Shown here piece by piece: positions 15,462 to 35,900 of a stretch of DNA of 40,293 nucleotides. Source of the DNA: Acutalibacteraceae bacterium (GTDB lineage Bacteria; Bacillota; Clostridia; Oscillospirales; Acutalibacteraceae); the NCBI GenBank assembly GCA_045604745.1, contig JAZUOR010000124.1:1-40293 (forward strand), written 5' to 3'. The notes beneath the pieces were generated by a model that had not been told where the DNA came from, searched no databases, and saw only the letters and a list, made by a program, of their open reading frames with translations. The position numbers and the translations under genes are program-made. Numbering within the stretch: position 1 is the first letter of the stretch; each line of letters starts with the position of its first letter.

Positions 15462-15490
15462 TTGACAACGCCGCACCGTGAGTTTATAAT
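15462..15490 (+). promoter_or_regulatory. consensus sigma-A promoter for the tRNA gene
   Basis: TTGACA (15462-15467), a 17-nt spacer and TATAAT (15485-15490), about 54 nt upstream of the tRNA 5' end. Confidence 0.65.
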
Positions 15491-15543: not shown

Positions 15544-15619
15544 CGGGGTGTAGCGCAGTTGGTAGCGCGCCAGCTTTGGGAGCTGGATGCCGCGAGTTCG
15601 AGTCTCGCCACTCCGACCA
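15544..15619 (+). tRNA. tRNA-Pro, anticodon UGG, with encoded CCA
   Basis: Folded by hand. Acceptor stem CGGGGTG/CACTCCG, D arm GCGC-AGTTGGTA-GCGC, anticodon arm CCAGC-TTTGGGA-GCTGG (anticodon TGG), T arm GCGAG-TTCGAGT-CTCGC, discriminator A, then CCA. Confidence 0.95.
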
Positions 15620-15649
15620 TCATTGGGCTACAAAAAAGATGTCGCCCCG

Positions 15650-15679
15650 AAAAAATCCGCACTATTGTGCGGATTTTTT
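15650..15679 (+). terminator. rho-independent terminator after tRNA-Pro
   Basis: AAAAAATCCGCAC-TATT-GTGCGGATTTTTT forms a perfect hairpin with a U-tract. Confidence 0.8.
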
Positions 15680-15826
15680 CGTATCTGTCACTTGATTTTG
15701 TGACATTCAAAACCGTAGATGTCATCGGAGTTTTTCCAGAGTCGAACTCACGTAATTCTCCTATTTCTGCAAAACAATAACATATCCGCCGTATAAACAA
15801 AGAAAAAACAGAACACTTCAAAGCAC

Positions 15827-15879
15827 AAGCCCGCAGTTTTCTCAAGGAGAAATCCTTCAAAGAACTGCGGGCTTTTTTC
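15827..15879 (+). terminator. conserved terminator-like hairpin immediately upstream of the paralog RBS (copy 1)
   Basis: AAGCCCGCAGTT...AACTGCGGGCTT forms a stem, followed by TTTT. The loop contains CAAGGAGAAATCCT. The same structure recurs at 22983-23033. Confidence 0.6.
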
Positions 15880-15910
15880 ATTTTAAATCAAATTGACCAG
15901 GAGGAAACCA

Positions 15911-16444
15911 ATGTACTTTTCATGCAATCAGTCCCACGCACCCAGATCAATCGATAAGCGCTCTCCAGCCGCATCATGGGATCTTATGATGCGCTCTGCG
16001 CTGTCCGATGTCAAGCATTCCGGATTCAACGAGCGGCTTCGGCGGCACCAGGCAAAGGAAAGCTGCTCCAAGATCTTCTTCGAGAGCGAGAATCACCGGG
16101 AGTTATTCTGCAAAGCCGCAAAACAGCTGCGTAAGGACAGACCTCATATGCTGGCAGTCATATATCTCTTGACAGCCAATCGAACGCTATGGTCAAGAAT
16201 CTGTCACAGAATGATTCCGGCAGAGCTATCGTTCGACAATGATCAGCTGGGCAAGGTTAACATCGGAGCATATACCCTGTTTTCATTTGCAAAAGATCTG
16301 CACACCGGATCGCAGCACATAACGGTTGAAGACATGATAGATCCGACAACTATCCCCGATAAGCTGTTTGCGCTCATATGCAACGCCATCGCTATACATC
16401 AGTTTGGCGTCGGCGCTCTTTCTTTTCTGCCGGACAATCCGTGA
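15911..16444 (+). CDS. conserved mobile-element hypothetical protein, paralog 1 (family not confidently recognised)
   Basis: 177 aa starting at the ATG at 15911 after AGGAGG. By eye it is about half identical to the ORF at 23066-23599 (shared RPxMLAVxYLL, LWSRxC, GKVN, FAKDLHTGSxHI, IPDKxFxLICNAI). Confidence 0.75.
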   Translation: MYFSCNQSHAPRSIDKRSPAASWDLMMRSALSDVKHSGFNERLRRHQAKESCSKIFFESENHRELFCKAAKQLRKDRPHMLAVIYLLTANRTLWSRICHRMIPAELSFDNDQLGKVNIGAYTLFSFAKDLHTGSQHITVEDMIDPTTIPDKLFALICNAIAIHQFGVGALSFLPDNP

Positions 16445-16581
16445 TAAGGCAAGCACAATGTCTCACTGCTTTCTTTGTGCATTGTTGGTATGGATATTGA
16501 AAAAGCATTCATTCATACATATCCATTTTCTCTCGCTCATAGATACTACATAAATATTATTATAACGACTTCCTTATTATA

Positions 16582-16610
16582 TTGCTTTTTTACAATGGGC
16601 GTGATAAAAT
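16582..16610 (+). promoter_or_regulatory. candidate promoter of the two-gene cassette (TTGCTT, 17-nt spacer, TGaTAAAAT extended -10)
   Basis: Read directly. The background is AT-rich, so chance matches are likely. Confidence 0.3.
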
Positions 16611-16707
16611 AAAGCAGTATATCATATATTTTTTAAATGCGAAATGAACAATAGATATTGTACCTAATTAGTGGTAAATCATCTCAATTTCGAAAGGGCT
16701 GTGTTTT

Positions 16708-18801
16708 GTGTCTCATTCTAAGACTTCAATCTATCTGAACGCTATCGGTTGTTTTGCTCGTTATTGGATTAGTAATATTTTCCCCACTGAATACCGTATG
16801 CTTGAAATGCAACCAGAGGGTGTCAATTCCATTAATCTCAGTAGCAAATATCTATATAGCGACGAGGTGCAACTTGCTAAGCTCAAAGAAAATAGAGACA
16901 CTGATATCTTTTTAGCCGCATGTTTTAGCTTGCTGTTCACACGGTATATATCTACCACAATTAATGAGGATGTTAAATACAATAGCATTAATCGTCCTAT
17001 ATTGACTTTTGTTTCCAAAAAAGGGTACTGGCTTTATAGAGTTGCACGAAATGGTCTCTGCTTTATTAAGGATGTATTTTCAAGTAGCACCTATGAAGAG
17101 TGCACAAATTTCTGGAGTGAACTAGTAGAAGTAAAAAGTGATCGATACTTTTTAAAATCGCCCCAAATAAATATGTACTCAAATTGTAATATTATTTTGA
17201 TTGATGATATTAGTCATACAGGTGAAAGCATTTCCGAATTTACAAACACAATGTGGAATGATGGGAGAACAATTCACTGCATAGTATTCGCCATCCACCA
17301 AGATGCTTTGATTCTACTTTCAGAAAAACATATACCTATATACTCTCCAAATAAGGACTTGGACAACGATGCCCTTGGAGAACTTTCTATAAGACAAGTC
17401 GCACTATTTCAAGCACTTGGTGTCCCCTACGCTATTGATCTTCCAATAATAAAACTTGAAAATACGCATTGCCATGAAACCCACAATATTGGAGCATCAT
17501 TTTCAAGTGGATTTATTTCTTTTGATGTCTTTAACAGAATACGTAAGGAGTGCAACGAAAAGGGATGGAAATGTGTTGACACCTCTTTCTTCATTGCGCC
17601 TGACGAAGAAGTAAAAAGCTGTGTCTTTTGCCTGAATACAGACCCACTAATGCCAAAGTATAAGAATTTGTTTCAGAACCTTGTGGTTGAGTGCAGCTAT
17701 AGACATATAGGAGAATATGTGGATGTTTCTCTTGTTCCTTTCGCGATTATGCGCTCAATAAATTTCTATGAATTATTTACTCTATATAATATTGTTTTCA
17801 AAGATACCGATTACAGAGACGAACTATTTATCTTTATAAAAAAATATATTCCTAGCAAAAGATTTTATCAGAATAAACATAATATATACTTTTTCAATAT
17901 CTTGATTACTGCATTATATCGATCATTAGTATATTTTTTCAGTTTGTATGTATCGAAACAATTCCATGAACTATTGAGTCATTATGATATCTTTCTTTGG
18001 ATTGATAACAGCCACGTTTCAGAGCATTGGGACGAATGTTTCTTCAACAGTAACGTTATAGCTTTATTTTCCGATCAATCCGATATTTCTTATAAAGCGC
18101 TTAATTCGATTTTTGAAAAAATATATGCAGTAAACGACATAGAATTAAGCGATGAGTACTGGACTTCAAAAAAAGAGATTTATCCTTTAGCATCATACGA
18201 AAATCTATACTTTATTATGCATAAGTTTTTTTCGCAACCAATAACACATAAAAAAACAAATTTTTGTTCCATCGAACGACTGGAAGCAACTATGTCAAAA
18301 ATTTCAGGAAAACAAATCGATGATTTGTCTTTTCGTAATGAGTTCACACAAACCATTCTTCGAATGTTGAATCAAAGCGCAATAAGCAACTCAATATATT
18401 TTGATCGTAGCAGCGGATTTGTTTTACGCGGATTTCGCCCCGGAGAAAACTGCAATCTACTTCTGCCCTTCAATCAACCTACAGTATTCTGCGCATTATA
18501 CGAGTATTACTCTTGTTGCATCAACAGTTCTACAGAAAAAAATAATGCAGTCTCAATATACAAAAAAAACTATGATCAGATGACAAAGATGCTTTTAGAT
18601 TATATATATGATGCAAGGCTTAACACTTATTTGGATGTAAATGAAACAAAGCATCTATTGGATTATTATCGAAATATTGACCCTGAAGTTCACATTAAAA
18701 ACAAAAAGTACATTGTAACGAATTTAAATGAAAAAAAATCTACTGATGCAATCTTAGCTAAGGTATTACAGAGTCAAGTTCGAACATTTCCATTGCAGTA
18801 A
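16708..18801 (+). CDS. large PRTase-like (phosphoribosyltransferase-fold) protein with a C-terminal region of about 470 aa of unknown function
   Basis: 697-aa ORF. The PRPP-loop signature NIILIDDISHTGESI (nt 17188-17232) lies about 60 aa after a candidate PPi-loop strand, ILTFVSKKGYWLYRVA. The start is uncertain: GTG at 16708 or ATG at 16795. Confidence 0.7.
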   Translation: MSHSKTSIYLNAIGCFARYWISNIFPTEYRMLEMQPEGVNSINLSSKYLYSDEVQLAKLKENRDTDIFLAACFSLLFTRYISTTINEDVKYNSINRPILTFVSKKGYWLYRVARNGLCFIKDVFSSSTYEECTNFWSELVEVKSDRYFLKSPQINMYSNCNIILIDDISHTGESISEFTNTMWNDGRTIHCIVFAIHQDALILLSEKHIPIYSPNKDLDNDALGELSIRQVALFQALGVPYAIDLPIIKLENTHCHETHNIGASFSSGFISFDVFNRIRKECNEKGWKCVDTSFFIAPDEEVKSCVFCLNTDPLMPKYKNLFQNLVVECSYRHIGEYVDVSLVPFAIMRSINFYELFTLYNIVFKDTDYRDELFIFIKKYIPSKRFYQNKHNIYFFNILITALYRSLVYFFSLYVSKQFHELLSHYDIFLWIDNSHVSEHWDECFFNSNVIALFSDQSDISYKALNSIFEKIYAVNDIELSDEYWTSKKEIYPLASYENLYFIMHKFFSQPITHKKTNFCSIERLEATMSKISGKQIDDLSFRNEFTQTILRMLNQSAISNSIYFDRSSGFVLRGFRPGENCNLLLPFNQPTVFCALYEYYSCCINSSTEKNNAVSIYKKNYDQMTKMLLDYIYDARLNTYLDVNETKHLLDYYRNIDPEVHIKNKKYIVTNLNEKKSTDAILAKVLQSQVRTFPLQ

Positions 18802-18872
18802 GTAACCGCATCACGCTTAGAGCTATAGCTAAATTGCTAGACTATTTTGTGTTTTGTAAGGATTTGATTTTA

Positions 18873-21800
18873 ATGACATGTTTTATCGAACAATGCTTTC
18901 GGAAACGTATTCTTCAGCACCCTGGCGGAAAGGACATCTTGAACAAATGGGAGTCAGATAAAAAGGCTTATCGAGATAGAACTGCTTTGACCGCATTTGA
19001 CTTTCAGCATTTTAGCATGCATGATGAAAGTCACTCTGTAAAGATTCTTAATTATGTTGAGTTGCTTTTAGGCAAAAATCGAATTGCTAATGATTTAAGC
19101 GTAGGCGATTTATGGCTATTGTTAGAGTGCGCATACTTCCATGATATTGGTATGACTCTGACCAAAGATCAGCGAACTAATCTTTGGTTAAATGATAAGA
19201 AATTCAGAGAATACATCACTGACCGATTGAAAGATAATTCAATTGGTCCCCATCGCGATATATTTGAGGCAGCCCAATACTATAAACATGTAGATGACCT
19301 CCTGAATGGCAAATATTCCTCCGAGGTGCTGGACGAAGATATTACTCATACACCAGATTGGCCAGAAACCCTTAACGATAAAATCCGATTGTTAATGACT
19401 GACTATATTCGCCAGCATCATGCGGATTATTGCAGGAATGCATTAGATGAAATCGTGATCAAGGACAGTGAATTCTTCGACGGAGTAATAGAAAAACGAT
19501 TATATGAACTAGTTTCCATTATCTCAGCACAACACACGAAAGAGTTTCACAATATTTTTCTTGATCTCCAGTATCAAGAGATTGCTTTTGGAAATATATA
19601 TATTCATCCGCAGTTTATTGCCGCATTACTTCGCATCGGAGATGTGCTAGATATAGATAATAACCGTTTTAACGTTAGAGTTTTAGACCATATCGGCACT
19701 TTGCCTCCATCGAGTGCTCTTCATCTTGAAAAACATAAATCTTTAACAAACTACAACGTGAGTTCTTACGGAATTACAGCTGTTGCATGTTCATCTGATC
19801 TTGATGTCTGTAAGATCACTCGTGATTGGTTTAACTGGATCGAATCTGAGGTCAAAGAAATAAAATATCATTGGAACAACATTGCTCCCAAAAGACTCAA
19901 TCATTGTCGCCTGAAATTTTGTGATTTAAGAGTGTTCCTTAATGGGAATGAATTTACTTCGCATAATGTTAATCAGTTCAGTTTTGACAGCCGCAAGATG
20001 CAGAAGCTATTAATTGGCGATAGTATATATTCTTGCAAACTCGATTGTATTCGAGAATACATACAAAATTCCATAGATGCGTCAAAAGTAAAAGTATGGG
20101 AAATCCTAAAACACGAAAACGCTGAATATCTCTTCAAAAACAGCAACCATAGTTGGCCTTGGTCAATGACATTGCCATGTGACCTTAAGGAAGATATATT
20201 TAATCAATTTCCTATTAGTATCGAACTATCATTACGTAAGGCAACTAAGCTAGGCGAAATTGATCAGATTATCTTTTCAATTCATGACTACGGAATCGGG
20301 ATGGATAGCGCCTGTGTAAAAGACATAACTACTATCGGTAAAGGCTGGCGTAATCGCCTAGAGTATCAAGATGTATTTTGCAGTGCACCGAAGTGGTTAC
20401 GTCCTACTGGCGGATTTGGAATCGGCATTCAATCTGCATTTATGCTGACGGATCAAGTAATCTATTTAACTCGGTCTGAAAACGAACCATACGGTCATGT
20501 AATTAGATTGGATTCACCATCTAAGGGAGGCAATGTCAGTGATGAGATTCGAAAAGGTGTTTTAAGAGGCACAAAAGTTGAGTTTGCTATTGATGCATTT
20601 TTGTTTTTAGATCCCAGTTTGTTAGGTCTGAGTAACACAGTACAAGAGTATGTCCGCAAAAAAATGAACGCAACAGTCGCAGCGATGTTTTCAGACCAAT
20701 ATTTGTTAGAGCTTGCTGGAACAGTATGTCGTGGATATATTGAGGAACAGCTTCCTAATTCGCTATTTCCGATTCGTTTTAGCTTCCGAGGACAAAAATC
20801 CATTTTGTTACCTTCACCTAGCTATTACGAATATGATATAATCGGTAATGAGATTGTTGGTAAGTACCCGCTTCGCATGCATTCTTTTAAGGACATGAAT
20901 ACTACCGACGTTTTTGAGGATAGCTCAAAAGACTCTTATGTATACCACATTCTTCCCAATGAGCAGATCCCCACTTACGATGGGCGTGATAAAAAAATCA
21001 TTCTATGGAGTCGTACTCACATGGATTGTGTTGATTTTATATTTTCAGATGCACCATTGAATCATTCAATAGGAAAGTCGGCAACCATAACTTTTAAGGA
21101 TATTTTAGTGCCAGATCACGGAAAAGAACTGGAAATCCCAAATGTAATATATAGATATAATCTTTTGGGCCAAACTGCTGGAAACGCACTTCTTGTAAGC
21201 CGTGCAAAGCTAAATCGTGATTTTGAAAGTATTTTTCTTGAAAGACTATATCAATATCTTTATTGCGCCCTTACGATTCTAATCCCTGAATCGATAAAAG
21301 AAAATATTGTTACAGCAAATAGCTATAAGCGAATGTTGTTTGCTTTGATATCTCAGAAAGCATTCCAAAAAGGTCTTTCTGATACAATAAATACATTACA
21401 AATATGTGATCATGCAGACAGCACATATCTGAACACTATTTACCATATCAAACCCACCAATCCAGACGCAGATGACTCATTGCAATATAGTATTGTTAGA
21501 GAAGATGCCAAAAATGCAATTAGCGAATTACTGAAAATACTTAGCAAGTATCACGAGAACCCTTCGCAATGCTTTGTTCTTTACACCCTATCTCATATTG
21601 ATAATACGAACGAATCCATTGTTCCGTCAGCACATTCTTGGATCTCTGTGTTTTCCATTCAACAAACCGAATACTATAATAGCGATGAACTAGAATCTGA
21701 AAATGCGGATAATCTGGACAGCGAATACGATTCTCTTTATTGCGGATTTTTTGAGCAAGATATCGCATCCACAAAATATTCTAGTAAAAAGGAATATGAT

Positions 21801-22379
21801 TCATTGCTGCAAAATATATGTATATTCAGCGAGGATTGGGAGTATTGTTTTGCTAATCTTTTGATAGATAAAAATACTGTGCTAATAAAAAAAATAAGTC
21901 CATTTGTGTTATCCGTAGAAAGTGACGCTCCAACCCTTAATCGGTATTATAAGATAACAAAATTCCATTTTAAAAATGTTGATTCATCAGATATTGATCA
22001 TGAAATTTATCATACTCATCCTTTGTTTGATGACTTAGCATGTCAAGCTAAATATCCACAATTGAGAGTAAAGGCAGTACCTTTCCCAAAATCCGGCAAG
22101 AGTAGCAATTTCAAATTTGCGCATCTTATTCCCGGAAAGGAAATACTAGGCAGCTTAACTGAAGTTGGTTTGAATCATAGGGAAATTACCACAGAAGCTA
22201 TCAGGCAAGCTTTAATTACAGACGCTGGTCTATTAACTGACTTCAAACGTTTGGTTAGGTGGACATACATACACCAATATAAAAATTCAAACGACAATTC
22301 ATATTCCTACCAAGAAATAGAGCAGGCGTACTTGACGATGCTTCTCGATATTATCAAAAGCCTAAACTTCTCAAAATAA
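18873..22379 (+). CDS. giant HD-domain phosphohydrolase fused to a GHKL (Bergerat-fold) ATPase, with a C-terminal region of about 600 aa of unknown function
   Basis: HD motifs: HDESHSV, AYFHDIGM (nt 19140-19145 encode HD), RQHHADY and LLRIGDVLDID. GHKL motifs: N-box IREYIQNSIDA (about 20049-20087), G1 DYGIGMD (20286-20306), G2 GGFGIGIQSAF (20409-20441) and RGTKVEF. I chose the ATG at 18873; the ORF track opens at a TTG at 18834. Confidence 0.8.
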   Translation: MTCFIEQCFRKRILQHPGGKDILNKWESDKKAYRDRTALTAFDFQHFSMHDESHSVKILNYVELLLGKNRIANDLSVGDLWLLLECAYFHDIGMTLTKDQRTNLWLNDKKFREYITDRLKDNSIGPHRDIFEAAQYYKHVDDLLNGKYSSEVLDEDITHTPDWPETLNDKIRLLMTDYIRQHHADYCRNALDEIVIKDSEFFDGVIEKRLYELVSIISAQHTKEFHNIFLDLQYQEIAFGNIYIHPQFIAALLRIGDVLDIDNNRFNVRVLDHIGTLPPSSALHLEKHKSLTNYNVSSYGITAVACSSDLDVCKITRDWFNWIESEVKEIKYHWNNIAPKRLNHCRLKFCDLRVFLNGNEFTSHNVNQFSFDSRKMQKLLIGDSIYSCKLDCIREYIQNSIDASKVKVWEILKHENAEYLFKNSNHSWPWSMTLPCDLKEDIFNQFPISIELSLRKATKLGEIDQIIFSIHDYGIGMDSACVKDITTIGKGWRNRLEYQDVFCSAPKWLRPTGGFGIGIQSAFMLTDQVIYLTRSENEPYGHVIRLDSPSKGGNVSDEIRKGVLRGTKVEFAIDAFLFLDPSLLGLSNTVQEYVRKKMNATVAAMFSDQYLLELAGTVCRGYIEEQLPNSLFPIRFSFRGQKSILLPSPSYYEYDIIGNEIVGKYPLRMHSFKDMNTTDVFEDSSKDSYVYHILPNEQIPTYDGRDKKIILWSRTHMDCVDFIFSDAPLNHSIGKSATITFKDILVPDHGKELEIPNVIYRYNLLGQTAGNALLVSRAKLNRDFESIFLERLYQYLYCALTILIPESIKENIVTANSYKRMLFALISQKAFQKGLSDTINTLQICDHADSTYLNTIYHIKPTNPDADDSLQYSIVREDAKNAISELLKILSKYHENPSQCFVLYTLSHIDNTNESIVPSAHSWISVFSIQQTEYYNSDELESENADNLDSEYDSLYCGFFEQDIASTKYSSKKEYDSLLQNICIFSEDWEYCFANLLIDKNTVLIKKISPFVLSVESDAPTLNRYYKITKFHFKNVDSSDIDHEIYHTHPLFDDLACQAKYPQLRVKAVPFPKSGKSSNFKFAHLIPGKEILGSLTEVGLNHREITTEAIRQALITDAGLLTDFKRLVRWTYIHQYKNSNDNSYSYQEIEQAYLTMLLDIIKSLNFSK

Positions 22380-22413
22380 AAAGTGGAAGGTTAAACTTGC
22401 GTAGAACTGAACT

Positions 22414-22456
22414 CAACCACTAAACTCGAGCTCCAATGAGCCGAGTTTAGTGGTTG
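22414..22456 (+). terminator. 15-bp perfect-stem hairpin downstream of the cassette (probable terminator)
   Basis: CAACCACTAAACTCG, a 13-nt loop, then CGAGTTTAGTGGTTG, followed by CTTCTTTCTT, 35 nt after the stop codon. Confidence 0.6.
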
Positions 22457-22982
22457 CTTCTTTCTTAGTAATCATCGAAGGGTGGCGAAGCCACTTGATA
22501 AGGTACAATAAAAATAGACATGGTTTTCAGGCTCTTGGTAGAATGAAGTTGCTACACAAACATTCGAAAGGAGAGCAGCCCTTGACGGTGGCGTTGACAT
22601 CTTGAATCCCCATTGCACCCCCATTGAGTTCCGGCAACATGACGGAACTCCTAGACCTCAATTTTTCTTCTTAGCACCGCACTACAACAGAATTATTCCG
22701 AGAGTTCAGCTTCGCATAAATAAATTCACCTACATCATCCTTTTCGTATTACACATACATTATTGGGGTACAATTTAGATGCCCCAGCAAAAAGCCGCAC
22801 AATAGTGCTTTTTTGCGTTAAGAACCTGAATTTTTCGTTGGTGTACAAAAGATGACATATCGCTTTTTCCGATGCTGAACTCAAACATAAACGCATAAAT
22901 CATCCAATTTTGATGGTCAAGAGTAAAAAATCAAAATATTTTTTGATTTATAGACACCACAAACAATTAATTATTCGAAGCA

Positions 22983-23033
22983 AAGCCCGCAGTTTACCCA
23001 AGGAGAAATCCTCAATAGACTGCGGGCTTTTTC
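22983..23033 (+). terminator. conserved terminator-like hairpin upstream of paralog 2 (copy 2)
   Basis: AAGCCCGCAGT...ACTGCGGGCTT followed by TTT, with the same CAAGGAGAAATCCT loop core as copy 1. Confidence 0.6.
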
Positions 23034-23065
23034 TATTTTAAACCAAAAATGAGGAGGTATCATTC

Positions 23066-23599
23066 ATGTACTTTTCAGACAGTCCGTCCACCAGACCTCG
23101 CTTCCCCTGTCAGACCGATCCGCCCACTACATGGGATGCCATGATCCTCTCCGTGTTGAGTGATCTTGATAACGACAACTTCCGGTACCGGCTCAACAGG
23201 ATGATTACAAGAGGAAAACCATCCGGCATATTCTTTGCAAATGAAACTCACTACCGGATATTCTACCGAGGCTCAAAGCAGCTCCGGCAGGATCGCCCGT
23301 ATATGCTTGCGGTGGTATATCTGCTCTCCTCCTGTAAAAGATTGTGGTCAAGAGTCTGCAGCGATAAGCTGCCAAGTGAGATCGTATCCGATGATAAGGC
23401 TATAGGCAAAGTCAATGGAAACATCTACACCATATACTCATTCGCAAAGGATTTGCACACCGGCTCACGCCACATATCGGTCGGAGATATGGCAGATGTC
23501 CTGCTTATCCCCGACAAACAGTTCGTTCTCATCTGCAACGCCATCACAATACACAGCTTTGGCGTAGCGGCTTTGGACTTTATGCCGAACGAATCATAA
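23066..23599 (+). CDS. conserved mobile-element hypothetical protein, paralog 2
   Basis: 177 aa, with RBS GAGGAGG. Paralogous to 15911-16444. Confidence 0.75.
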   Translation: MYFSDSPSTRPRFPCQTDPPTTWDAMILSVLSDLDNDNFRYRLNRMITRGKPSGIFFANETHYRIFYRGSKQLRQDRPYMLAVVYLLSSCKRLWSRVCSDKLPSEIVSDDKAIGKVNGNIYTIYSFAKDLHTGSRHISVGDMADVLLIPDKQFVLICNAITIHSFGVAALDFMPNES

Positions 23600-23709
23600 T
23601 CGGCTACTCACAATGATGCGAGGGAAATCTTGTGCATTGTTGGTATAGATATCAGCCAACCGAGGTGATATTGTCTTGAACTAAAATACGACTGGAGGAG
23701 GTGATCACC

Positions 23710-23994
23710 ATGCAATCGGAAACCATCAGGCAGCTATATAACGGAACACTTGTGCCAAGCGAATGGCCTTTGCCGGACACTCTGGAAAACACATCTCTCA
23801 ACGCTGAAGTAGTTGAACGGCTCAATGCCCTGCTCAATCGTCTGGACGACGAGGATAAAAAGGCACTCGGAGAACTCATGAGCGCAAAGAATCTTATGAT
23901 GCAGCGCTATTCCGAGCAGGCATTTGTTGACGGCTACAAGACTGCCACCACTCTGCTGTTTGAGGGGCTTGCCGGATTAGAACGAATCGAATAA
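23710..23994 (+). CDS. small conserved ICE hypothetical protein
   Basis: 94 aa from the ATG at 23710 after GGAGGAGG. The QLYNGTLVPSEW N-terminus resembles small helical proteins common in Clostridia conjugative elements. A hairpin (GCCGCATGAA...TTCATGCGGC, 24015-24044) follows. Confidence 0.6.
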   Translation: MQSETIRQLYNGTLVPSEWPLPDTLENTSLNAEVVERLNALLNRLDDEDKKALGELMSAKNLMMQRYSEQAFVDGYKTATTLLFEGLAGLERIE

Positions 23995-24073
23995 GTGAAA
24001 CCCACAGCCGCTATGCCGCATGAAGCTCATCTGTTTCATGCGGCAATTTCTATAACCGAAGGAGAAATTCTCA

Positions 24074-24385
24074 ATGAATAAATTTGACAGAATGCGCCGG
24101 GATGCCGAAATAAACAAACGGCTGTATCCTCCCGGAACACGCATCGAGCTCATCAAAATGAACGATCCTTACGCACCCGTAGAACCGTTGACGACAGGCA
24201 CGGTTGTCGCTGTTGACGATGCCGGAAGTCTCATCATGAAGTGGGATAACGGCAGAACCCTTTCCGTCATTCCCGGCGAAGATTCTTTCCGTAAAATCGC
24301 ACTGGAGGCAGAACAGTCTGCGTCAGAAGCTCCCGAAAACAATGCGGAAGAACCTACTGAAGAATCCCCCACAATAAGTATGTAA
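24074..24385 (+). CDS. DUF4314-like small protein
   Basis: YPPGTRIELIKMNDPYAPVEPLTTGTVVAVDDAGSLIMKWDNGRTLSVIPGEDSF matches my recollection of the DUF4314 core seen in Firmicutes mobile elements. Confidence 0.65.
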   Translation: MNKFDRMRRDAEINKRLYPPGTRIELIKMNDPYAPVEPLTTGTVVAVDDAGSLIMKWDNGRTLSVIPGEDSFRKIALEAEQSASEAPENNAEEPTEESPTISM

Positions 24386-24398
24386 AGGAGAAATAACA

Positions 24399-26015
24399 AT
24401 GATTTCTATTTTCATCTACACCCACAATCGTCATATTCCTGAGAATGCGTTCACCGCAAATATCACTCTTCCGGCTGAAGCCATCCTCATCGAGGACGCT
24501 CTGAGCCGTGCAAGATACAAGGACAACGGTCAGAGCAGCATCAGCATCGGCGAGTGCATTGCCCTCCCTGAACTGGAGGGAATGAACATTTCCTTCGCCA
24601 ATATTGACGAGCTGAATTTCCTCGCAGGTCGTCTGTCCGGACTCTCCAGACCGCAGCTTGCTGCTTTCGGTGCGATCCTCGGACGCGAGGAATTCAAGAA
24701 CGGATCCTCCATCCGTGACCTCATCAACATCAGCTACGGCTTGGATGATATTCACGTATGGGCTGTTGGCAGCGACGAGGAATACGGTCGAATGGTTGTT
24801 GAAAACAATCTGCTGGAGGATCTTGAAAACATTCCCGATTCTGCGCTCGGATATCTTGATTATGCCAAGATCGGAGAATCCGTGCGTACTGCCGAGGGCG
24901 GTGAATTCAGGAACGGTATGTATGTTGTCACCCCTCATTTTGAAATGCCTGATATTTACGACGGCATCGATCTGCCCGAAGAAAACAACGACCACACCGT
25001 GTTCAGGCTGTGCGATTCCGACCGTGAGGAAGATGACGAAACCATTCTGAATCTTCCCTGTGATCCGCAGATGCTTGACGATGTGGAGGGCGAACTTGAC
25101 ATCGTGAGTGCATTCCCCTGTATCGATCCCAACGACTTCGACGATACCTTCACACTTGAAGATCTCAACGCTCTGGCGGAGCGCATTTCCGAGCTATCGG
25201 AGGATGACCGCATCAAACTTCGCGCCGTGTGTTCGGCTCACGCACCGCATAGCTGCGAGGATGTTCTCGACAGCATTTCTTCTCTGGACGAATATCAGCT
25301 TGACAGCAGCATATCCTACGCTGATGATTTTGCAAAGGTATACCTTGCCGCAAATCTTCCGGAGGACTTTGACACCAGCCTTCTTGACAGCCTTGGACTT
25401 TATGGCTTCGGAACACAGCTGATGAACCGTCTGAATGCAAGCTCCACGCCATACGGTATTCTGTCTGCCAAGGGCGGTCTGCTCACCGAGGTAGTCAAAG
25501 CCGAGGGCATCGTTGCTGAAGATCCGGACATAACCGTTGAGCTTTCCGATGACGAATCAGAGGAAAGCGAAAATGTGACTGTCTCTGAGCCGGAGGACTC
25601 CATAGAACAGGAACCTCCCTCGGAGCTGGATCAGAACACAGATGCCGGTGGCGGCGACACCGGAACAGAACAGGATCTGACCGCTGAACGGCTCGATGTC
25701 GTCGAGGTGTTCGGTCAGACCGCTCTCTTCTCCAATGCAAGAATTCTCGAATCCCAGCTCCCGGAGGGTCTCTACAAGTACGATCTCCGACAGGGCGGTG
25801 AGATGGCTTTCGCCAGCATGGAAAAGGTTGTCGGTGTTGACCACGCCGGAACGCTGATCTCCTCGCAGCCCTTTGACTTCGCAGATGACAGCTGTATCCC
25901 CTTCGACGAGGACTCGTCTCCCAACTTCCTCGGCTACGACATGAGCCTCGAAGAATACATGAACGCTTCCTTCGAGCAGTCTGAAAGTCAGGATGCAGGG
26001 GGTATCTCGATGTGA
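24399..26015 (+). CDS. ArdA-like antirestriction domain fused to a long, very acidic C-terminal extension (polyvalent-type ICE protein)
   Basis: The segment SDEEYGRMVVENNLLEDLENIPDSALGYLDYAKIGESVRTAEGGEFRNGMYVV parallels the ArdA C-terminal pattern (..Y.IEE.G.LGE.P..L..YIDY...GRD....G.F...G). The rest is D/E-rich. RBS is AAGGAG. Confidence 0.6.
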   Translation: MISIFIYTHNRHIPENAFTANITLPAEAILIEDALSRARYKDNGQSSISIGECIALPELEGMNISFANIDELNFLAGRLSGLSRPQLAAFGAILGREEFKNGSSIRDLINISYGLDDIHVWAVGSDEEYGRMVVENNLLEDLENIPDSALGYLDYAKIGESVRTAEGGEFRNGMYVVTPHFEMPDIYDGIDLPEENNDHTVFRLCDSDREEDDETILNLPCDPQMLDDVEGELDIVSAFPCIDPNDFDDTFTLEDLNALAERISELSEDDRIKLRAVCSAHAPHSCEDVLDSISSLDEYQLDSSISYADDFAKVYLAANLPEDFDTSLLDSLGLYGFGTQLMNRLNASSTPYGILSAKGGLLTEVVKAEGIVAEDPDITVELSDDESEESENVTVSEPEDSIEQEPPSELDQNTDAGGGDTGTEQDLTAERLDVVEVFGQTALFSNARILESQLPEGLYKYDLRQGGEMAFASMEKVVGVDHAGTLISSQPFDFADDSCIPFDEDSSPNFLGYDMSLEEYMNASFEQSESQDAGGISM

Positions 26016-26605
26016 TTACACAGATATCTACCGATGATCTCCGCAAAATGAAAGGCAGTGAGGGACTGATCATTCAGGGCTGCGGAGGTGACCTGAACCA
26101 ATGGGTCGACGGAATAAATGACCTATTGACCAAAGCCGGAATACTGCCGGACGGGAAGACATTTACCGATGCATCGCAGTTTTCCAATGACGGCGTGACC
26201 TGTCTGCTGTTCAAGTTTACCGATGACCTGAAGCATCTTGATGTGGGTAAGCTGGCAATATGGCGTCTGCAGACCCACGAAGCTTTCGGAGGCACATGGC
26301 TTTCCGATTATGTCCCTAACCGCCTTGGAGGATTCATATCAAATCCTTCCGGAGCAGAAAGAAAAAAGCCCGATTGTGAGCTGATCGGGAAAGACGGCAA
26401 CATCTTTAATCTCGTTGGAATTGCGGCAAGAACCCTGAATCGCAACGGGATGTCTGATGAAGCCAAAGAGATGTCATCCAGAGTGTTTGCGTCGGGAGAC
26501 TATAACGAAGCTCTCTGTATCATCGGTGAATATGTCAACATTGTCGGCTCGGACGTGAACTTCGACGAGGACTTCGGCGGAGATCTCAATCCCATGACGA
26601 TGTAA
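26012..26605 (+). CDS. hypothetical ICE protein (unknown function)
   Basis: 197-aa ORF with coding-like composition. Its GTG start overlaps the stop of the upstream gene (ATGTGA), suggesting coupling. Confidence 0.6.
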   Translation: MITQISTDDLRKMKGSEGLIIQGCGGDLNQWVDGINDLLTKAGILPDGKTFTDASQFSNDGVTCLLFKFTDDLKHLDVGKLAIWRLQTHEAFGGTWLSDYVPNRLGGFISNPSGAERKKPDCELIGKDGNIFNLVGIAARTLNRNGMSDEAKEMSSRVFASGDYNEALCIIGEYVNIVGSDVNFDEDFGGDLNPMTM

Positions 26606-26798
26606 TAAAAATCAAACCGGTATCAGTCGTTCTGCGGAATGAATGATGCCGACTTTTTTGCATATTTTTTCAAATCAAAAAGCTACTGCAAAAATCCGAG
26701 AGGAAGGCCGCGCTTATTGCCGACTCGAAGGATTTTTGTTAGTAGTCTTATTTGAAGAATTATGTTTTCCGCTGGACGATTGATGCCAACGGAGGTGA

Positions 26799-27794
26799 AT
26801 GCCTGTAGAAATACCCTACCAACCCCTTGACAGCCCGGTAACATGGGTGGGCAGTAAAAAGAAACTTCGCGCCATTCTCTATGCTGTGTTCCCTGCGGGT
26901 TACAGCAGGTATATTGAGGTCTTTGGCGGCAGCGGAAATGTTCTGCTCGGAAAACCACCGGATTGCTTTGAAGTATACAACGACTTCAACGGCGATCTTG
27001 TCAATCTCTTCCGATGCATCCGCGACCGTCCGATGGCTCTGTTAAGCAATCTCGGCTTCCTTAATCTCAACTCAAGGGATGACTTCAAGGTGCTTCGCAA
27101 ATTCTTCAAGCAAGAGGAATTTCACGATGATTTCCTTGAAGAAGAACTTGAACTGACACGACTGATGCTTCCGGAGTGCAGTGCACAGGAGATAATAGAG
27201 CTGAGAAACACAAAAGCCAAAGACTTTGATGTACGCAGAGCTTCCATGTATCTGCGTCTGATCCGCACCAGCTACTCCAGCATGGGCAAAAGCTTTGCAA
27301 GCCAGCCGTTTCATGTCGGAAAGCTGAAATCCCTGATATGGGATGCATACCGCAGGCTCGAAACGATTGTGATTGAAAACCAGCACTTCGCTGTGCTCAT
27401 AAAGCATTATGATCGCAGGGGTGCTTTTTTCTATTGTGATCCGCCGTACCTCAACACAGAAACGATGTATGACGCTATGTTCAACTGGGATGACCATCTT
27501 GCCTTGCGAAAACTCGCCGGGGACTGCAAGGGGTATTTCCTGATATCGTACAACGACTGTCCGGAAATACGCAATCTGTATTACGGCTTCTGGTTCTTCG
27601 ATTTCAAGAGAGCGCATTGCATGGCACAGAGAACAGACCCCGGAAAGGAATTTCCGGAGCTGCTCATCGCCAACTACGATATGTTCGCTCCGCATCGGGA
27701 AAAGCCTACGCAGACCACCTTGTTTGAAGATGACAAGGAACTTTCTGAAGAAGAAATAAACCAAATCATAAAGGAGTGTATTATCAATGGATAA
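26799..27794 (+). CDS. orphan N6-adenine DNA methyltransferase, Dam/D12 class
   Basis: VTWVGSKKKL (Dam N-terminal motif), EVFGGSGNV (SAM-binding FxGxG) and FFYCDPPY (catalytic DPPY) are present. No adjacent restriction endonuclease gene. Confidence 0.85.
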   Translation: MPVEIPYQPLDSPVTWVGSKKKLRAILYAVFPAGYSRYIEVFGGSGNVLLGKPPDCFEVYNDFNGDLVNLFRCIRDRPMALLSNLGFLNLNSRDDFKVLRKFFKQEEFHDDFLEEELELTRLMLPECSAQEIIELRNTKAKDFDVRRASMYLRLIRTSYSSMGKSFASQPFHVGKLKSLIWDAYRRLETIVIENQHFAVLIKHYDRRGAFFYCDPPYLNTETMYDAMFNWDDHLALRKLAGDCKGYFLISYNDCPEIRNLYYGFWFFDFKRAHCMAQRTDPGKEFPELLIANYDMFAPHREKPTQTTLFEDDKELSEEEINQIIKECIING

Positions 27795-28005
27795 CAGATG
27801 CTTTCTCATCCCCGTCCCCGATTACATTATCGCCGAGTCCGGTGTAAACCTTGCCGACATCACGGAGGTGTTTGCCGAAGAAGGCATGGTGATTATCAGA
27901 AATCCCGTACCGGAGAGCATCGACGAATGCGGCTATTCCGATCATCGCTGCGGCAATAATCACGAAAGCTGCTGCCGCCATTGCTGCGAAAGAAAGAGAG
28001 GCTGA
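27787..28005 (+). CDS. small protein with an AbrB/SpoVT-like N-terminal half and a Cys/His-rich tail
   Basis: 72 aa. IPVPDYIIAESGVNLADITEVFAEEGMVIIRN resembles a swapped-hairpin strand pattern. The tail is DECGYSDHRCGNNHESCCRHCCERKRG. Its start overlaps the end of the methylase gene. Confidence 0.45.
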   Translation: MDNRCFLIPVPDYIIAESGVNLADITEVFAEEGMVIIRNPVPESIDECGYSDHRCGNNHESCCRHCCERKRG

Positions 28006-28007
28006 CT

Positions 28008-28292
28008 ATGAACAGCAAGCATTTCAGAATCCTTGGTGACTGTGGAAGAACAACCATTCCTCTTGCGCTGCGGATCAGCATGAATCTTTCCAGCAACGAC
28101 ATTTTGAGCTTTCGTCAGAACGGCGATGAGATCATCGTCCGTAAAGAAAGGCTCTGTGACAATTGCGGCGAAGCAAATAAGCGTCCCGCAGTAAACAATA
28201 ACCTGTTCGCTATGCTGGATAGTCTCTCTCCGGAGCAGCAGTTCAACGCTCTGACTCATCTGTCCCTCAAGTGGGCTGAACACAATCAGTGA
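28008..28292 (+). CDS. AbrB/MazE/SpoVT-family DNA-binding protein
   Basis: RILGDCGRTTIPLALRISMNLSSNDILSFRQNGDEIIVRKE is a typical SpoVT-AbrB domain. The ATG at 28008 follows AGAGAGG, 2 nt after the previous stop. Confidence 0.7.
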   Translation: MNSKHFRILGDCGRTTIPLALRISMNLSSNDILSFRQNGDEIIVRKERLCDNCGEANKRPAVNNNLFAMLDSLSPEQQFNALTHLSLKWAEHNQ

Positions 28293-28387
28293 TGCAGCAC
28301 AGCGAAAACTCACAACTCAAGTAAAGGAAGTGACCGTGTGCCTCGATCTCCCCCTGAAAATATAATACACAACCGAACACTTTCCCA

Positions 28388-28418
28388 AGCCCGACCCGAA
28401 AAAGGTCGGGCTTTTTTT
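28388..28418 (+). terminator. rho-independent terminator
   Basis: AGCCCGACC-CGAAAAA-GGTCGGGCT followed by TTTTTTT. Confidence 0.85.
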
Positions 28419-28472
28419 GCGCCCATTTTCCAAAATCAACAACAAAAAATATAAAATTTGGAGGAATTCAAA

Positions 28473-29297
28473 ATGAAAAATAAGACCCGTATCACTTCTC
28501 TCGTTCTCGCTCTCATCATGCTCGTCAGCGTGTTCGTTCCGACGATGTCTGCCAGCGCAGCCAACCTCTATACCTCGCAGGCTCGTGAGGGAACATATAT
28601 CGTAGCCAATATGAGCGAGTACAGCTGCGGTGTTCAGGTTCGTACCACTTCCAGCTACAATTACGGCAGCAAGATCGGTACTATCTATCCTGATATGGCT
28701 TACAAGTATCTGAATGTGACCGAAACCGATGAACACGGCAGAGACTGGTTCAAAATCCAGTACAGCACCGGTAAAACCGGCTGGGTATGCGACACCTATA
28801 CCCACAAGGTCACCGTCCATTCCAGAAACAAGGTGCTCACCACCGGCAGCCAGATCAACATGAGAAAAGGCCCGGGAACCAGCTACGCAACTTACGGTCT
28901 CAGCTACGCCAATACCTACTACTCCATCATTGGCTGTGCTGGCGAGGGCTTTACCATCAACGGAACAAAATGGTATCAGGTCATGGATAACAACAATCGC
29001 GTGTTCTGGTTCAAGGGTACTCTGCTGTCCAAGGTAGAGGTGTACACTACCGTGACCTGTGATGTCGACACCGGAACCTATTTTACTCGCACTTACAATT
29101 TCAAAGCTGCATCCTATGCCCGTACCGGTCCGAGTACCTCTAACAGCAAGGTTCGCAGCACCACCTTTAACACCAAAGCGATCATAGACATCACCAGCGT
29201 AAAGCTCAACACCAAAGGCGAATTGTGGTACGGCGTTCAGATCCGTGACGGCGGCAAGCTGTATAACGGATATGTGCTTGGTTCGCTGCTGAAATAA
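28473..29297 (+). CDS. secreted protein with tandem bacterial SH3-like domains
   Basis: Signal peptide MKNKTRITSLVLALIMLVSVFVPTMSASA. Repeated patterns of the type ..V.VRT..S....KIGTIYPD..Y......E.GRDWFKIQYSTGKTGWV and ..INMRKGPGTSY.....Y.....I.G.....TINGTKWYQV are SH3b-like. Confidence 0.65.
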   Translation: MKNKTRITSLVLALIMLVSVFVPTMSASAANLYTSQAREGTYIVANMSEYSCGVQVRTTSSYNYGSKIGTIYPDMAYKYLNVTETDEHGRDWFKIQYSTGKTGWVCDTYTHKVTVHSRNKVLTTGSQINMRKGPGTSYATYGLSYANTYYSIIGCAGEGFTINGTKWYQVMDNNNRVFWFKGTLLSKVEVYTTVTCDVDTGTYFTRTYNFKAASYARTGPSTSNSKVRSTTFNTKAIIDITSVKLNTKGELWYGVQIRDGGKLYNGYVLGSLLK

Positions 29298-29349
29298 TCT
29301 CTCCGCAAAAATCCAATCCCAATATCCTACAAGCAAGGGGGTGATAAGA

Positions 29350-29739
29350 ATGCCCATCAAACCCAAAGCCAAAGAAAACACCAACCAGACCACTCCCGCA
29401 ATCCCCACCATCGAAACCCGCATCGACAAGCTGGTGGATGATCCCGGCAGCAAGATCAAAGCCTTTGCCAGCGTGACAATCGGCGGTATGTTCGCCGTCC
29501 ATGGACTCAAGGTCATGGATTCCGCAAAGGGAATGTTCGTATCCATGCCCTACAATTCCTATAAGGACGCACAGGGAGAAACCAAGTACCAGGATGTCTT
29601 CCACGCCGTTACCGCAGAATCCCGTCAGGCAATCATCGATTCGGTGTCTCAGGCTTACGAGCAGGCGCTCTCCCAGAGCCAGACCGAGAGCAGTGAGATA
29701 GCCGCAGCACAGGAAAATTCCGCTGAGCAGAATATGTAA
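29350..29739 (+). CDS. SpoVG-family nucleic-acid-binding protein homologue
   Basis: IKAFASVTIGGMFAVHGLKVMDSAKGMFVSMPYNSYKDAQGETKYQDVFHAVTAESRQAIIDSVSQAYEQAL parallels the SpoVG core (..A.VSIT.D..FVVHDIKVI.G..GLFIAMPSRK...GE.RDIAHPI..E.R..I...V..AY). Confidence 0.7.
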   Translation: MPIKPKAKENTNQTTPAIPTIETRIDKLVDDPGSKIKAFASVTIGGMFAVHGLKVMDSAKGMFVSMPYNSYKDAQGETKYQDVFHAVTAESRQAIIDSVSQAYEQALSQSQTESSEIAAAQENSAEQNM

Positions 29740-29825
29740 CTACTTCGTTAATTCTTCAAGTTTGGTATAGACTTGTCAGCCTTTAATGGTATTGTTGAAT
29801 TAGATAACGAAAGGAGGCTTCAGCC

Positions 29826-30611
29826 ATGAAAACAGCAAAACTCATTGCGGTGTTCCTATGCGGAGTAATATTGATGGGTGCCATGTCCTGTGCCAGATCA
29901 GCTTGTATGACGCGTCCGGATATCGGAACAGACACCCCATCGGAATCCGATGTCGTATCGCACACCGATCCGCCGATAGAATCATCAACCGATGTTCCAC
30001 CGGCTTCGACCGAGCCTGCAGCATCTCCAACAGATGCATCGGCACCCGAAATTACTGAGCCGACTTCCTCTTCTACCGCAGCTGCAACAACATCAGTCAC
30101 AACTGCGGCGACAACCTCTACGGCGGCAAAGAAAACCACATCAACCTCGACAAGAGCTACGACAACTTCTACAAGGGCTACAACGGCTAAAACTACCTCA
30201 AAGCCTACAACAGCCAAAACAACCGTATCGACGACAAAGACTACTACGACCACTACCACAAAGGTGACCACCCGAACCACGACTACGACCACAACGGCAA
30301 AACCCACTACAACTACAAAACCGACCACAACAGCGAAGCCAACCACTACGACAACCGCTGCCCCGGCTTTCGATATCAGCAGGCTGTCCTCATACGCCAA
30401 AAGCTATGGTCAGAGCATTGGCATGACATATGACAGCGGCGTGAGCAGCTTCGACACTCCGCTGATACTGTCGGCAGCCACCACACAGCCGGAAAAACGA
30501 ATCCGTGACCGGCTTGACGGCTACGCAGCGAACGGTTACACACGCTTCAAGGTCTTGACGGAGCAGCGTGAATCGGACGGAAAATGGAAGCTCTACATCG
30601 CATACGGTTAA
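29826..30611 (+). CDS. secreted or possibly lipid-anchored protein with a long Thr/Pro/Ala-rich linker and a small C-terminal globular domain
   Basis: Hydrophobic N-terminal signal with Cys residues (LCGVILMGAMSCARSAC). About 100 aa of T-rich low complexity. RBS is AAAGGAGG. Confidence 0.65.
   Translation: MKTAKLIAVFLCGVILMGAMSCARSACMTRPDIGTDTPSESDVVSHTDPPIESSTDVPPASTEPAASPTDASAPEITEPTSSSTAAATTSVTTAATTSTAAKKTTSTSTRATTTSTRATTAKTTSKPTTAKTTVSTTKTTTTTTTKVTTRTTTTTTTAKPTTTTKPTTTAKPTTTTTAAPAFDISRLSSYAKSYGQSIGMTYDSGVSSFDTPLILSAATTQPEKRIRDRLDGYAANGYTRFKVLTEQRESDGKWKLYIAYG
30063..30365 (+). repeat. coding low-complexity Thr-rich tract (imperfect AKPTTTT/TTTT units)
   Basis: The translation reads TSSSTAAATTSVTTAATTSTAAKKTTSTSTRATTTSTRATTAKTTSKPTTAKTTVSTTKTTTTTTTKVTTRTTTTTTTAKPTTTTKPTTTAKPTTTTTAAP. 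Confidence 0.8.
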
Positions 30612-30685
30612 TACTCGAATCAACTCAAATCAGCGTCGCAGGACATCCTCCTGCGGCGCTGAACTCATTTCAGGAGGTATTCTTA

Positions 30686-35083: not shown

Positions 35084-35101
35084 TACAGGAGGAATCAGAA
35101 C

Positions 35102-35431
35102 ATGAAAAAGCTGAAAAGGCTGCTGCCGGTGCTGGTCATTCTGCTGCTGGCGGCTGTGATTTTTTCAATGAATGTCTTTGCTGCAGGAGATGTCTCCGGC
35201 GCAATCGAGGACACATGGAACACCGCACAGGCACAGATCCGCTCTGTGGTGGACAATGTCGTATTCCCGGTAATTGATATGATTCTGGCAATCATGTTCT
35301 TTGTCAAACTTGGCACCGCGTATTTCGATTATCGCAAACACGGACAGTTTGAATTTGCCGCACCCGCAATACTGTTTGCCTGTCTGGTCTTTACCCTCAC
35401 AGCCCCGCTGTACATCTGGGATATCATCTAA
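35102..35431 (+). CDS. small two-TM secreted membrane protein, possible VirB2/TrbC-like pilin of the T4SS
   Basis: 109 aa: a signal peptide (cleavage near VFAAG), an amphipathic segment and two hydrophobic helices. It sits at the head of the T4SS gene block. The family call is tentative. Confidence 0.45.
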   Translation: MKKLKRLLPVLVILLLAAVIFSMNVFAAGDVSGAIEDTWNTAQAQIRSVVDNVVFPVIDMILAIMFFVKLGTAYFDYRKHGQFEFAAPAILFACLVFTLTAPLYIWDII

Positions 35432-35497
35432 GTCATACGTTTCGCATTAGTTGGCGTACGTTCCGTCGCTGTTTATATTTTCCACACCCATTTATAC

Positions 35498-35535
35498 TAA
35501 TACTTAAAGAGTTAGTTTACACTCTTTCAGTATTA
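35498..35535. promoter_or_regulatory. 15-bp-arm imperfect palindrome (TAATACTTAAAGAGT-N8-ACTCTTTCAGTATTA): candidate operator of the XRE regulator
   Basis: Read directly. 14 of 15 arm positions are complementary. It ends 15 nt before the xre-like ATG, so it overlaps the RBS/promoter region. Confidence 0.45.
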
Positions 35536-35550
35536 CCAGGAGGGTAGAAA

Positions 35551-35883: not shown

Positions 35884-35900
35884 TCGAATATGAGATATAA

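Follow-up and report, generated by a model that had tools for sequence, protein, structure and literature searches.

How does an AT-rich set of accessory genes come to lie between a tRNA gene and an integrative and conjugative element (ICE), bracketed by two diverged copies of one sequence? The question is raised by a 40,293-nt stretch of DNA from an Acutalibacteraceae bacterium (contig JAZUOR010000124.1), here called the window; it is one assembled contig, and all positions refer to its full length. Directly 3' of a tRNA-Pro gene, an islet at 15620-22759 is followed by an ICE recognized from Pfam matches at 22760-40293 (plus strand), which continues past the window edge. We consider it probable (about 0.85) that two members of a single ICE family stand in tandem at tRNA-Pro, the distal one of a type that we call B and the proximal one, of type A, decayed to the likeness of a cis-mobilizable element (CIME). 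In the mechanism we propose, family members would insert right after the CCA of tRNA genes, and the resulting junctions would share only CA. The proximal element would keep its left terminus and first gene together with its cargo slot and right terminus, its core, including recombination and conjugation genes, having been lost and debris of an IS256-family insertion sequence (IS) added. Integration of a second element at an att site of the resident would then create an internal junction of right terminus, CA, and left terminus.

Left termini behind a tRNA gene

A preliminary description of this locus, made from the sequence alone, had pointed to diverged direct repeats of ~0.9 kb, and these stand up to measurement. 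Copy A (15620-16508) and copy B (22760-23663), both on the plus strand, are 63.1% identical at the DNA level in a global alignment (z = 26 versus shuffles) and carry the same elements in the same order, namely, a CCGCAC hairpin, an AGATG..TTTTTCC..GAACTCA block, a AAGCCCGCAG hairpin, an open reading frame (ORF), and a TTGTGCATTGTTGGTAT box. Similarity reaches well outside the ORF: the noncoding part 5' of it (291 and 306 nt) alone is 63% identical (z = 14.6; best BLAST piece, E = 4e-20), compared with 63% for the ORF DNA and 62% for the 64 nt 3' of it, within which a 23-nt box reaches 96%. The encoded 177-aa proteins, judged about half identical by eye in the preliminary description, share 51% identity over 175 aa (E = 4e-67). 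In the 300 nt beyond either repeat boundary, alignment is no better than that of shuffled sequence, and both repeats start, at 15620 and 22760, directly 3' of a CA dinucleotide.

For copy A, this dinucleotide is the last CA of the tRNA gene itself (15618-15619). The gene, a tRNA-Pro(TGG) at 15544-15619 on the plus strand, is intact, ends in CCA, and is the sole tRNA gene of the window (ARAGORN; Rfam tRNA, 69.8 bits). Comparison with relatives identifies what follows it, called flank sequence in the preliminary description, as element sequence, since the same stretch follows the CCA of other tRNAs. At locus L001, TCATTGGGCTACAA, the sequence found after tRNA-Pro in the window, directly follows the CCA with which a tRNA-Leu(TAG) ends, and at L005 a DUF1232 gene and a tRNA-Pro precede the same left-end sequence in a synteny equal to that of the window. 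Exactly from 22758 onward, the window is matched at ~97% identity by a 3.9-kb contig of run X23, in which GGGTTCGACCCCCGCCGCCGGCAC, the 3' end of a third tRNA, comes before the match. The left boundary thus rests on four junctions at three tRNAs: tRNA-Pro (window and L005), tRNA-Leu (L001), and the third tRNA (X23). The recurrence of one left-end sequence after the CCA of different tRNAs shows that both repeats are left termini of integrated elements beginning right after the CCA. Copy A, judged against L001, L005, and a contig from run X3, is the truncated left terminus of an A-type family element that begins with the P' arm TCATTGGGCTACAAAAAAGATG, and copy B, aligned with the X23 contig, the intact left terminus of a B-type ICE. 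In scanned metagenome and viral collections, the left-arm pattern TYATTGGGSTACAANNNAGATGYC and the 177-aa alignment recovered no further copies.

Several of the shared elements are structured. Directly 3' of the tRNA, copy A supplies a terminator hairpin with a 15-bp stem and a T run (15648-15681, plus strand; -23.7 kcal/mol, z = -7.7); this is the CCGCAC hairpin, whose counterpart in copy B folds at -11.4 kcal/mol. The copy B hairpin (22789-22815) is weakened relative to the tRNA terminator of copy A, and the tRNA-adjacent B-type copy of X23 has three additional bases, GGT, after 22808, restoring the stem. The AAGCCCGCAG hairpin, which in copy A precedes the 177-aa gene at 15827-15874 (plus strand; z = -6.9), folds at -29 kcal/mol in both copies. 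The conserved box TTGTGCATTGTTGGTATGGATAT of copy A (16475-16497, plus strand) is 96% identical to 23630-23652 in copy B and is kept in L001, L002, and L005.

Two copies of a left end could also arise by local duplication within the ICE, the cassette having arrived separately, for instance, on a transposon with ends of its own, and the preliminary description had set internal duplication against its own proposal. The foreign GC of the cassette and an IS256-family remnant at its right edge would agree with such an origin. The copies, however, are just 63% identical, and each has much closer kin elsewhere. Five proteins of the 177-aa family form two clades, one joining copy A to L001 (86% aa identity) and L005 (73%) and the other joining copy B to P0002 (86% aa identity), and fragments of copy A occur at 100% DNA identity in two metagenome runs, X1 and X3. 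This separation into clades, each with closer relatives at other loci, argues against duplication in place and for different lineages of one ICE family brought together. Moreover, a family right terminus precedes copy B and would not result from duplicating a left end, neither inverted nor direct repeats surround 16509-22496, and the IS remnant has one end region only and no transposase. We therefore regard local duplication as extremely improbable and continue with the tandem array of two elements.

The right terminus and the internal junction

The islet ends in a sequence with which relatives also end. Over 62 nt at 22698-22759 (plus strand), from CGAGAGTTCAGCTTCG to CATCCTTTTCGTATTACACATA-CA, matches in L025, L026, and L032 identify a right terminus of the ICE family. 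Positions 16083-16144 of L026 match 22698-22759 of the window (blastn, E = 1e-8) and end in CATCCTTTTCGTCGCACACATACA, positions 15225-15248 of L025 match the same terminus and end in CATCTTTTTTGTATCGCAAACACA, and the window itself ends in CATCCTTTTCGTATTACACATACA; similarity among the three stops right after CA. Within the L026 and L025 loci, the right-terminus motif finds its top match at these sites (21 and 20 of 24 positions; next best, 15-16), which sit downstream of a recombinase triplet and cargo, where a right end is expected. In L032, a more distant relative with a recombinase 71% identical, CATCTTTTTCGT..ACA occurs 43 nt after the recombinase stop with no cargo between, and beyond it come a terminator hairpin and GC-richer, host-like genes. 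The interval 22460-22757 had been treated as a single unexplained spacer, an assignment replaced once the right termini of the relatives were matched. Together, the left end, TYATTGGGSTACAA just 3' of the tRNA CCA, and the right end, CATCYTTTTYGT..ACA, provide exact termini for a family of ICEs that annotation pipelines would not delimit.

The relatives also point to the enzymes that would act on these ends. The ICE-like regions of L025 and L026 end in a triplet of a 519-aa serine recombinase, a 283-aa recombinase-domain protein, and, last, a 549-aa serine recombinase. In L001, ArdA is followed by a recombinase gene fragment, a 549-aa large serine recombinase, TIR_2, and Abi_alpha, and the homologs of this recombinase in L025 and L026 are 88% and 83% identical to it. 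Pfam detects no recombinase within the visible 17.5 kb of the B-type ICE, and judging from L001, L025, and L026, this ICE would encode a serine-recombinase triplet past the window. L025 and L026 share 78% identity as far as the stop of the last recombinase gene and are unrelated beyond, where an AT-rich slot begins (GC of 0.30-0.35 versus 0.42-0.47). This slot holds a histidine phosphatase and two unknown genes in L025 (11651-15224); SduA_C (Shedu-like), a protein kinase, and a reverse transcriptase in L026 (11651-16082); TIR_2 and Abi_alpha in L001; and nothing in L032 (11645-11686). The cassette of the window, in its GC drop and its position, is typical of this family cargo slot. No right arm was found in L001, where AT-rich cargo continues to the end of the 10.9 kb examined.

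Two of these loci have histories of their own. L001 (1-10912) is a decayed member at its tRNA-Leu(TAG). The left end of this member, ArdA included, meets the 3' part of the first recombinase gene in a fusion at 3446, and the locus retains the last two recombinase genes along with TIR_2, Abi_alpha, and further AT-rich genes. In L026, a tyrosine integrase gene lies on the opposite strand (16200-17405), past the right terminus of the ICE by ~55 nt, which suggests that an additional, unrelated element has integrated there and is stacked at the same site.

At 22736-22781 lies an internal, attP-like hybrid junction composed of the right arm, CA, and the B-type left arm, with the boundary at 22758 confirmed by the X23 contig. 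Between the right arm and the reverse-complemented A-type left arm, 14 of 22 positions agree, a level reached at only 18 of 80,542 window positions; this is the partial dyad symmetry expected of an attP. Taken alone, the dyad score of the hybrid junction, 11/22, is unremarkable; the match to the right termini of the relatives is decisive. With a family right terminus closing the islet, the order at the internal junction is right end, CA, left end, as tandem integration predicts. This junction and the separate lineages of the two copies support the suggestion of the preliminary description that two related elements integrated successively at the same site. A two-base crossover is typical of serine recombinases. 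CA is all that the four left junctions and the four right ends have in common, with no tRNA 3' fragment duplicated at 22759, and such CA-only junctions would fit a crossover of this kind.

Between the cassette and the right terminus lies IS debris. An 82-nt left-end remnant of an IS256-family element occupies 22497-22578 (plus strand), with the terminal repeat GATAAGGTACAATAA, a promoter (TAGACA..TAGAAT), and a ribosome-binding site. The same IS end occurs at 16 GTDB loci, where it is followed by a transposase starting MSNNIVQFNEE, and is common in Oscillospiraceae and in Faecousia metagenome-assembled genomes (MAGs). In the window, no transposase gene follows this left end. Instead, a reversed 32-nt fragment at 22613-22644 (minus strand; tblastn) encodes nine codons of an IS256-family transposase C terminus (RHVAGTQWG), a piece that in the X3 and X25 contigs continues into transposase sequence. 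As an IS256-family element would combine two terminal inverted repeats with an intact Transposase_mut-type gene, we class the debris as a remnant only. With the 62-nt right terminus, it separates the cassette from copy B by ~300 nt, which corrects the preliminary description in its placing of the cassette exactly between the copies.

The debris bears on a further possibility, that the window is an assembly artifact, either by joining noncontiguous loci at the IS256 repeat or by assembling the attP of an ICE circle into the chromosome. The window is one 40,293-nt contig, the IS end is a multicopy repeat that breaks many MAG contigs of Oscillospiraceae and Faecousia, and a junction of right end, CA, and left end would also be carried by an excised circle. 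However, a collapse through a repeat would look different: the 82-nt IS end meets a reversed 32-nt fragment, and the joins share no k-mer. The X25 contig gives an independent link between the 20-nt flank 22478-22497 and IS256-family sequence, and the two repeats, A and B, are too diverged to mislead an assembler. An artifact is quite improbable in our judgment, and even under it, the left part remains a decayed A-type element at tRNA-Pro.

Other observations weigh against a tandem array of two family members. The right arm best matches the A-type left arm, yet the subterminal GAGTTCAGC motif best matches type B, making the lineage of the right terminus ambiguous. The right end and recombinases of the ICE lie out of view, its recombinase type being taken from relatives, and L025, L026, and L032 are tied to the family only via the L001 recombinase and the terminus match. 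The substrates of large serine recombinases are normally limited to the pair of attP and attB, and integration into a hybrid site would need relaxed recombinase specificity. Lastly, contiguity across 22497-22697 rests on the single contig, no public run holding this strain having been found.

Granting the tandem array, two orders of arrival give the same structure, and we choose neither. The B-type ICE may have entered the right junction of a resident A-type element, an order favored by the greater decay of the proximal element. Alternatively, the B-type ICE may have been the resident, with an A-type element entering at its tRNA-CA junction and decaying afterward. Rightward of CA, the sequences of L025, L026, and L032 are mutually unrelated, while the tRNA side shares the T arm and acceptor, so that recognition may rest mainly on the tRNA half, which would favor the second order.

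A T-arm-like motif, CGAGTTCAGCTTCG (in L032, GAGGGTTCAAATCC), recurs in the right termini ~40 nt inside the crossover, and an inverted partner, GCTGAACTC or GTCGAACTC, in the left ends ~105 nt inside it. The sites are 22702-22720, 22864-22882, and 15731-15751 in the window, 16088-16102 in L026, and about 11650-11670 in L032. The pair in the window is 84% complementary over 19 nt and could represent accessory binding sites or a relic of a tRNA 3' end.

Decay and possible mobility of the proximal element

The homology of copy A to intact relatives ends at a deletion or replacement junction at 16508-16509, placed by alignment and by the X3 contig. This 196-nt contig is 100% identical over 16415-16508 and reaches the start of DUF6809 after a further 28 bases; the window, past 16508, turns AT rich and is unrelated to intact family elements. 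The 177-aa gene is followed by DUF6809, DUF4314, and ArdA-LPD28 in L001, L002, L003, and L005, the same order as after copy B, and intact A-type elements (L001, L005, and X3) continue into DUF6809 where copy A breaks off. We infer a deletion as the event that removed the core of the proximal element. The loss in copy A is recent, because the intact parent type still exists with identical sequence (X1 and X3).

What remains of the islet has the makings of a CIME. Among Pfam, NCBIfam, and PADLOC matches in 15620-22759, which contains three notable ORFs, there are no recombinase, relaxase, or type IV secretion families, in agreement with the preliminary view that the proximal element lacks integrase and conjugation genes of its own. 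Both end sites are conserved in sequence, the left arm after the CCA and the 62-nt right terminus down to its CA. Derivation by decay from an ICE or an integrative and mobilizable element is seen in the A-type elements elsewhere that continue into DUF6809, DUF4314, and ArdA. An islet with both ends and no recombination or transfer genes, in tandem with a related ICE, therefore falls within the published definition of a CIME (PMC5704250).

Whether the islet can still move is a separate matter. The recombinases of the ICE would recombine the tRNA-Pro::A junction with the right junction of the ICE, so that islet and ICE excise and transfer as a unit; we think this possible, if on balance doubtful. 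Under the same tandem architecture, the islet could instead be an inert scar, its outer left junction or the attP-like internal junction having ceased to serve as a substrate, with only the ICE moving, if anything, and the cargo staying chromosomal, to which we give somewhat less than an even chance. The large deletion and the IS debris agree with a scar, as do the 5 of 22 positions at which the A-type and B-type left arms differ and the usual strictness of serine recombinases toward site pairs. Against it, the left arm remains 17/22 identical to that of type B, the 62-nt right terminus aligns with those of relatives to the last base, and copy A is 100% identical to extant elements of X1 and X3, so that its decay is recent. 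Excision joints were not seen in the public runs examined, but these runs are without this strain, so the missing joints are uninformative.

Elements that pile up at one site and share recombinases are known from other bacteria. In staphylococci, composite staphylococcal cassette chromosome (SCC) islands and ccr-less pseudo-SCC elements accumulate at rlmH (orfX), and members without recombinases, bounded by integration-site sequences, can be excised by the recombinases of a neighbor. The present locus differs in recombinase family, target gene, and hosts, and SCC elements are not ICEs. Background on CcrA and CcrB is given in a study of the Dehalococcoides ssrA islands (PMC3146451), which lie in tandem, use CcrB-like serine recombinases, and include some without an integration module that were proposed to be cis-mobilizable. 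There, as here, serine-recombinase elements with variable cargo are stacked 3' of a small-RNA gene. Those islands, however, are bounded by a 20-bp direct repeat of ssrA, have the integration module next to attL, and are nonconjugative (PMC3146451), whereas here the recombinases, judging from relatives, would occupy the tRNA-distal end and the islet is partnered by a conjugative element from gut Clostridia.

In Streptococcus thermophilus, integration, decay, and a second integration have been proposed for CIME19258 and for ICESt1 and ICESt3 (Pavlovic 2004 and Bellanger 2011, as summarized in PMC5704250). The preliminary description likened the islet to these CIMEs. The likeness holds for the architecture, in which the remnant and a related ICE share one orientation in a tandem at the 3' end of a conserved gene, and for the lack of recombinase and transfer genes. 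It fails for the recombination system: the streptococcal elements have tyrosine integrases and att repeats of tens of bases, whereas here the junctions share CA only, the relatives carry a serine-recombinase triplet, and several tRNA genes are targeted at their CCA end. Cis-mobilization, moreover, was demonstrated by experiment in Streptococcus, whereas here it would be a prediction from sequence. As accretion and CIMEs, serine-recombinase ones included, have already been described, the conceptual gain is modest. The locus does offer a base-by-base case in which a conjugative element of uncultured gut Clostridia decays to an end-flanked, cargo-only remnant coupled to a working relative.

Cargo genes and neighboring regions

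The AT-rich cargo cassette spans 16509-22456 on the plus strand, with a GC of 33-38% versus about 50% in the ICE, and closes with a terminator hairpin (22414-22456; -31.2 kcal/mol). Its first gene (16708-18801, plus strand) encodes 697 aa with a weak phosphoribosyltransferase (PRTase)-like motif, IILIDDISHTGES, at residues 152-195 (Pfam Pribosyltran, E = 0.18, below threshold), and has no PADLOC, NCBIfam, or PDB match. The second (18873-22379, plus strand), of 1168 aa from the ATG at 18873 in an ORF that opens at 18834, combines an HD-CE phosphohydrolase domain (Pfam PF24391, E = 9e-42) with HSP90/GHKL-like ATPase matches at residues 477-628; its nearest HD-CE homolog is only 50% identical. 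The pair is kept in L006 and L007, where a 659- to 680-aa gene precedes the HD-CE gene, the 659-aa partner in L006 being 35% identical to cargo gene 1. Neither protein matches a system model of PADLOC-DB 2.0 at E<=0.01, and a literature search on HD-CE and PF24391 returned nothing relevant. The pair is a candidate for a defense-like function by virtue of its cargo-slot position and neighborhood. No public sequencing run contained the cassette or 22640-22760.

A 36% identical HD-CE homolog occurs in L030 and L031 (1-19378), in a defense island between two SIR2-STAND genes, with a phospholipase-like gene and a PD-(D/E)XK AAA ATPase nearby. Its upstream partner there is a 330-aa Rv3785_N protein in place of the PRTase-like one.

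A variable AT-rich slot of defense-like genes at a fixed position recalls the defense-gene hotspots of integrated mobile elements (PMC10201445). The PRTase-like and HD-CE/HSP90-like pair of the window matches no PADLOC 2023 model, and it would add a candidate two-gene system without a counterpart among known defense models. The variable slot is recognizable next to the right terminus, and in relatives it contains Shedu-like, TIR, Abi, and reverse transcriptase genes. If the defense reading is true, the interval between the last recombinase gene and the T-arm-like right terminus would be a general place to look for new defense genes. The fullest version of this reading, in which the islet is a still-mobilizable serine-recombinase CIME and its cargo a new anti-phage system in the dedicated defense slot of a gut Oscillospiraceae-like ICE family that targets the CCA of several tRNA genes, is rather unlikely in our view.

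The host side to the left of tRNA-Pro, with a GC of about 50-55%, encodes MatE, a P-type ATPase, AraC regulators, an M42 peptidase, a radical SAM protein, and a NUDIX protein. A promoter scan places a consensus promoter, TTGACA-17-TATAAT, at 15462-15490 ahead of the tRNA, and an Rfam scan returned the tRNA alone, plus terminator-driven leader matches below threshold. On the other side, the B-type ICE looks intact over its visible 17.5 kb, with genes in view for DUF6809, DUF4314, ArdA-LPD28, D12 methyltransferase, MazE-like, SpaA/thioester adhesin, DUF3852, HTH, YpsA, TrbL_5, and sortase. TrbL_5, DUF3852, the sortase, and the SpaA/thioester adhesin may belong to a conjugation module; the ATPases, coupling protein, and relaxase would lie past the window. 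Three ORFs of the ICE have no Pfam, PADLOC, or NCBIfam family: 28317-29546 (minus strand, 409 aa), 29826-30611 (plus strand, 261 aa), and 26012-26605 (plus strand, 197 aa). The 409-aa ORF is the only large minus-strand gene in that part of the ICE.

The 177-aa gene (15911-16444, plus strand, in copy A; 23066-23599, plus strand, in copy B) is the first gene of the ICE left end, which is probably the leading end of the ICE. With ArdA-LPD28 and the D12 methyltransferase nearby, this end looks like a leading region of anti-restriction genes. The copy A protein has no Pfam match above threshold; the close relatives of the family fall in four clusters among 5.8 billion proteins, with 594 remote clusters. 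Neither the two 177-aa proteins nor the DUF1232 host protein had an exact match in protein look-ups. An AlphaFold model of the 177-aa protein had a pLDDT (predicted local distance difference test score) of 44 and was left out of the fold search. In a profile search, remote family members were 120-240 aa long, with weak links to DUF6075, and one was fused to an ArdC N-terminal domain and a metallopeptidase. In both copies (within 15827-15910 and 22983-23065), a strong hairpin and T run, with AAGGAGAAATCC in the loop, stands only ~35 nt ahead of the start codon, a spacing that leaves no room for a promoter. The gene may depend for its expression on read-through, such as transcription that comes from the right end and crosses attP in the circle, or be expressed from single-stranded DNA on entry.

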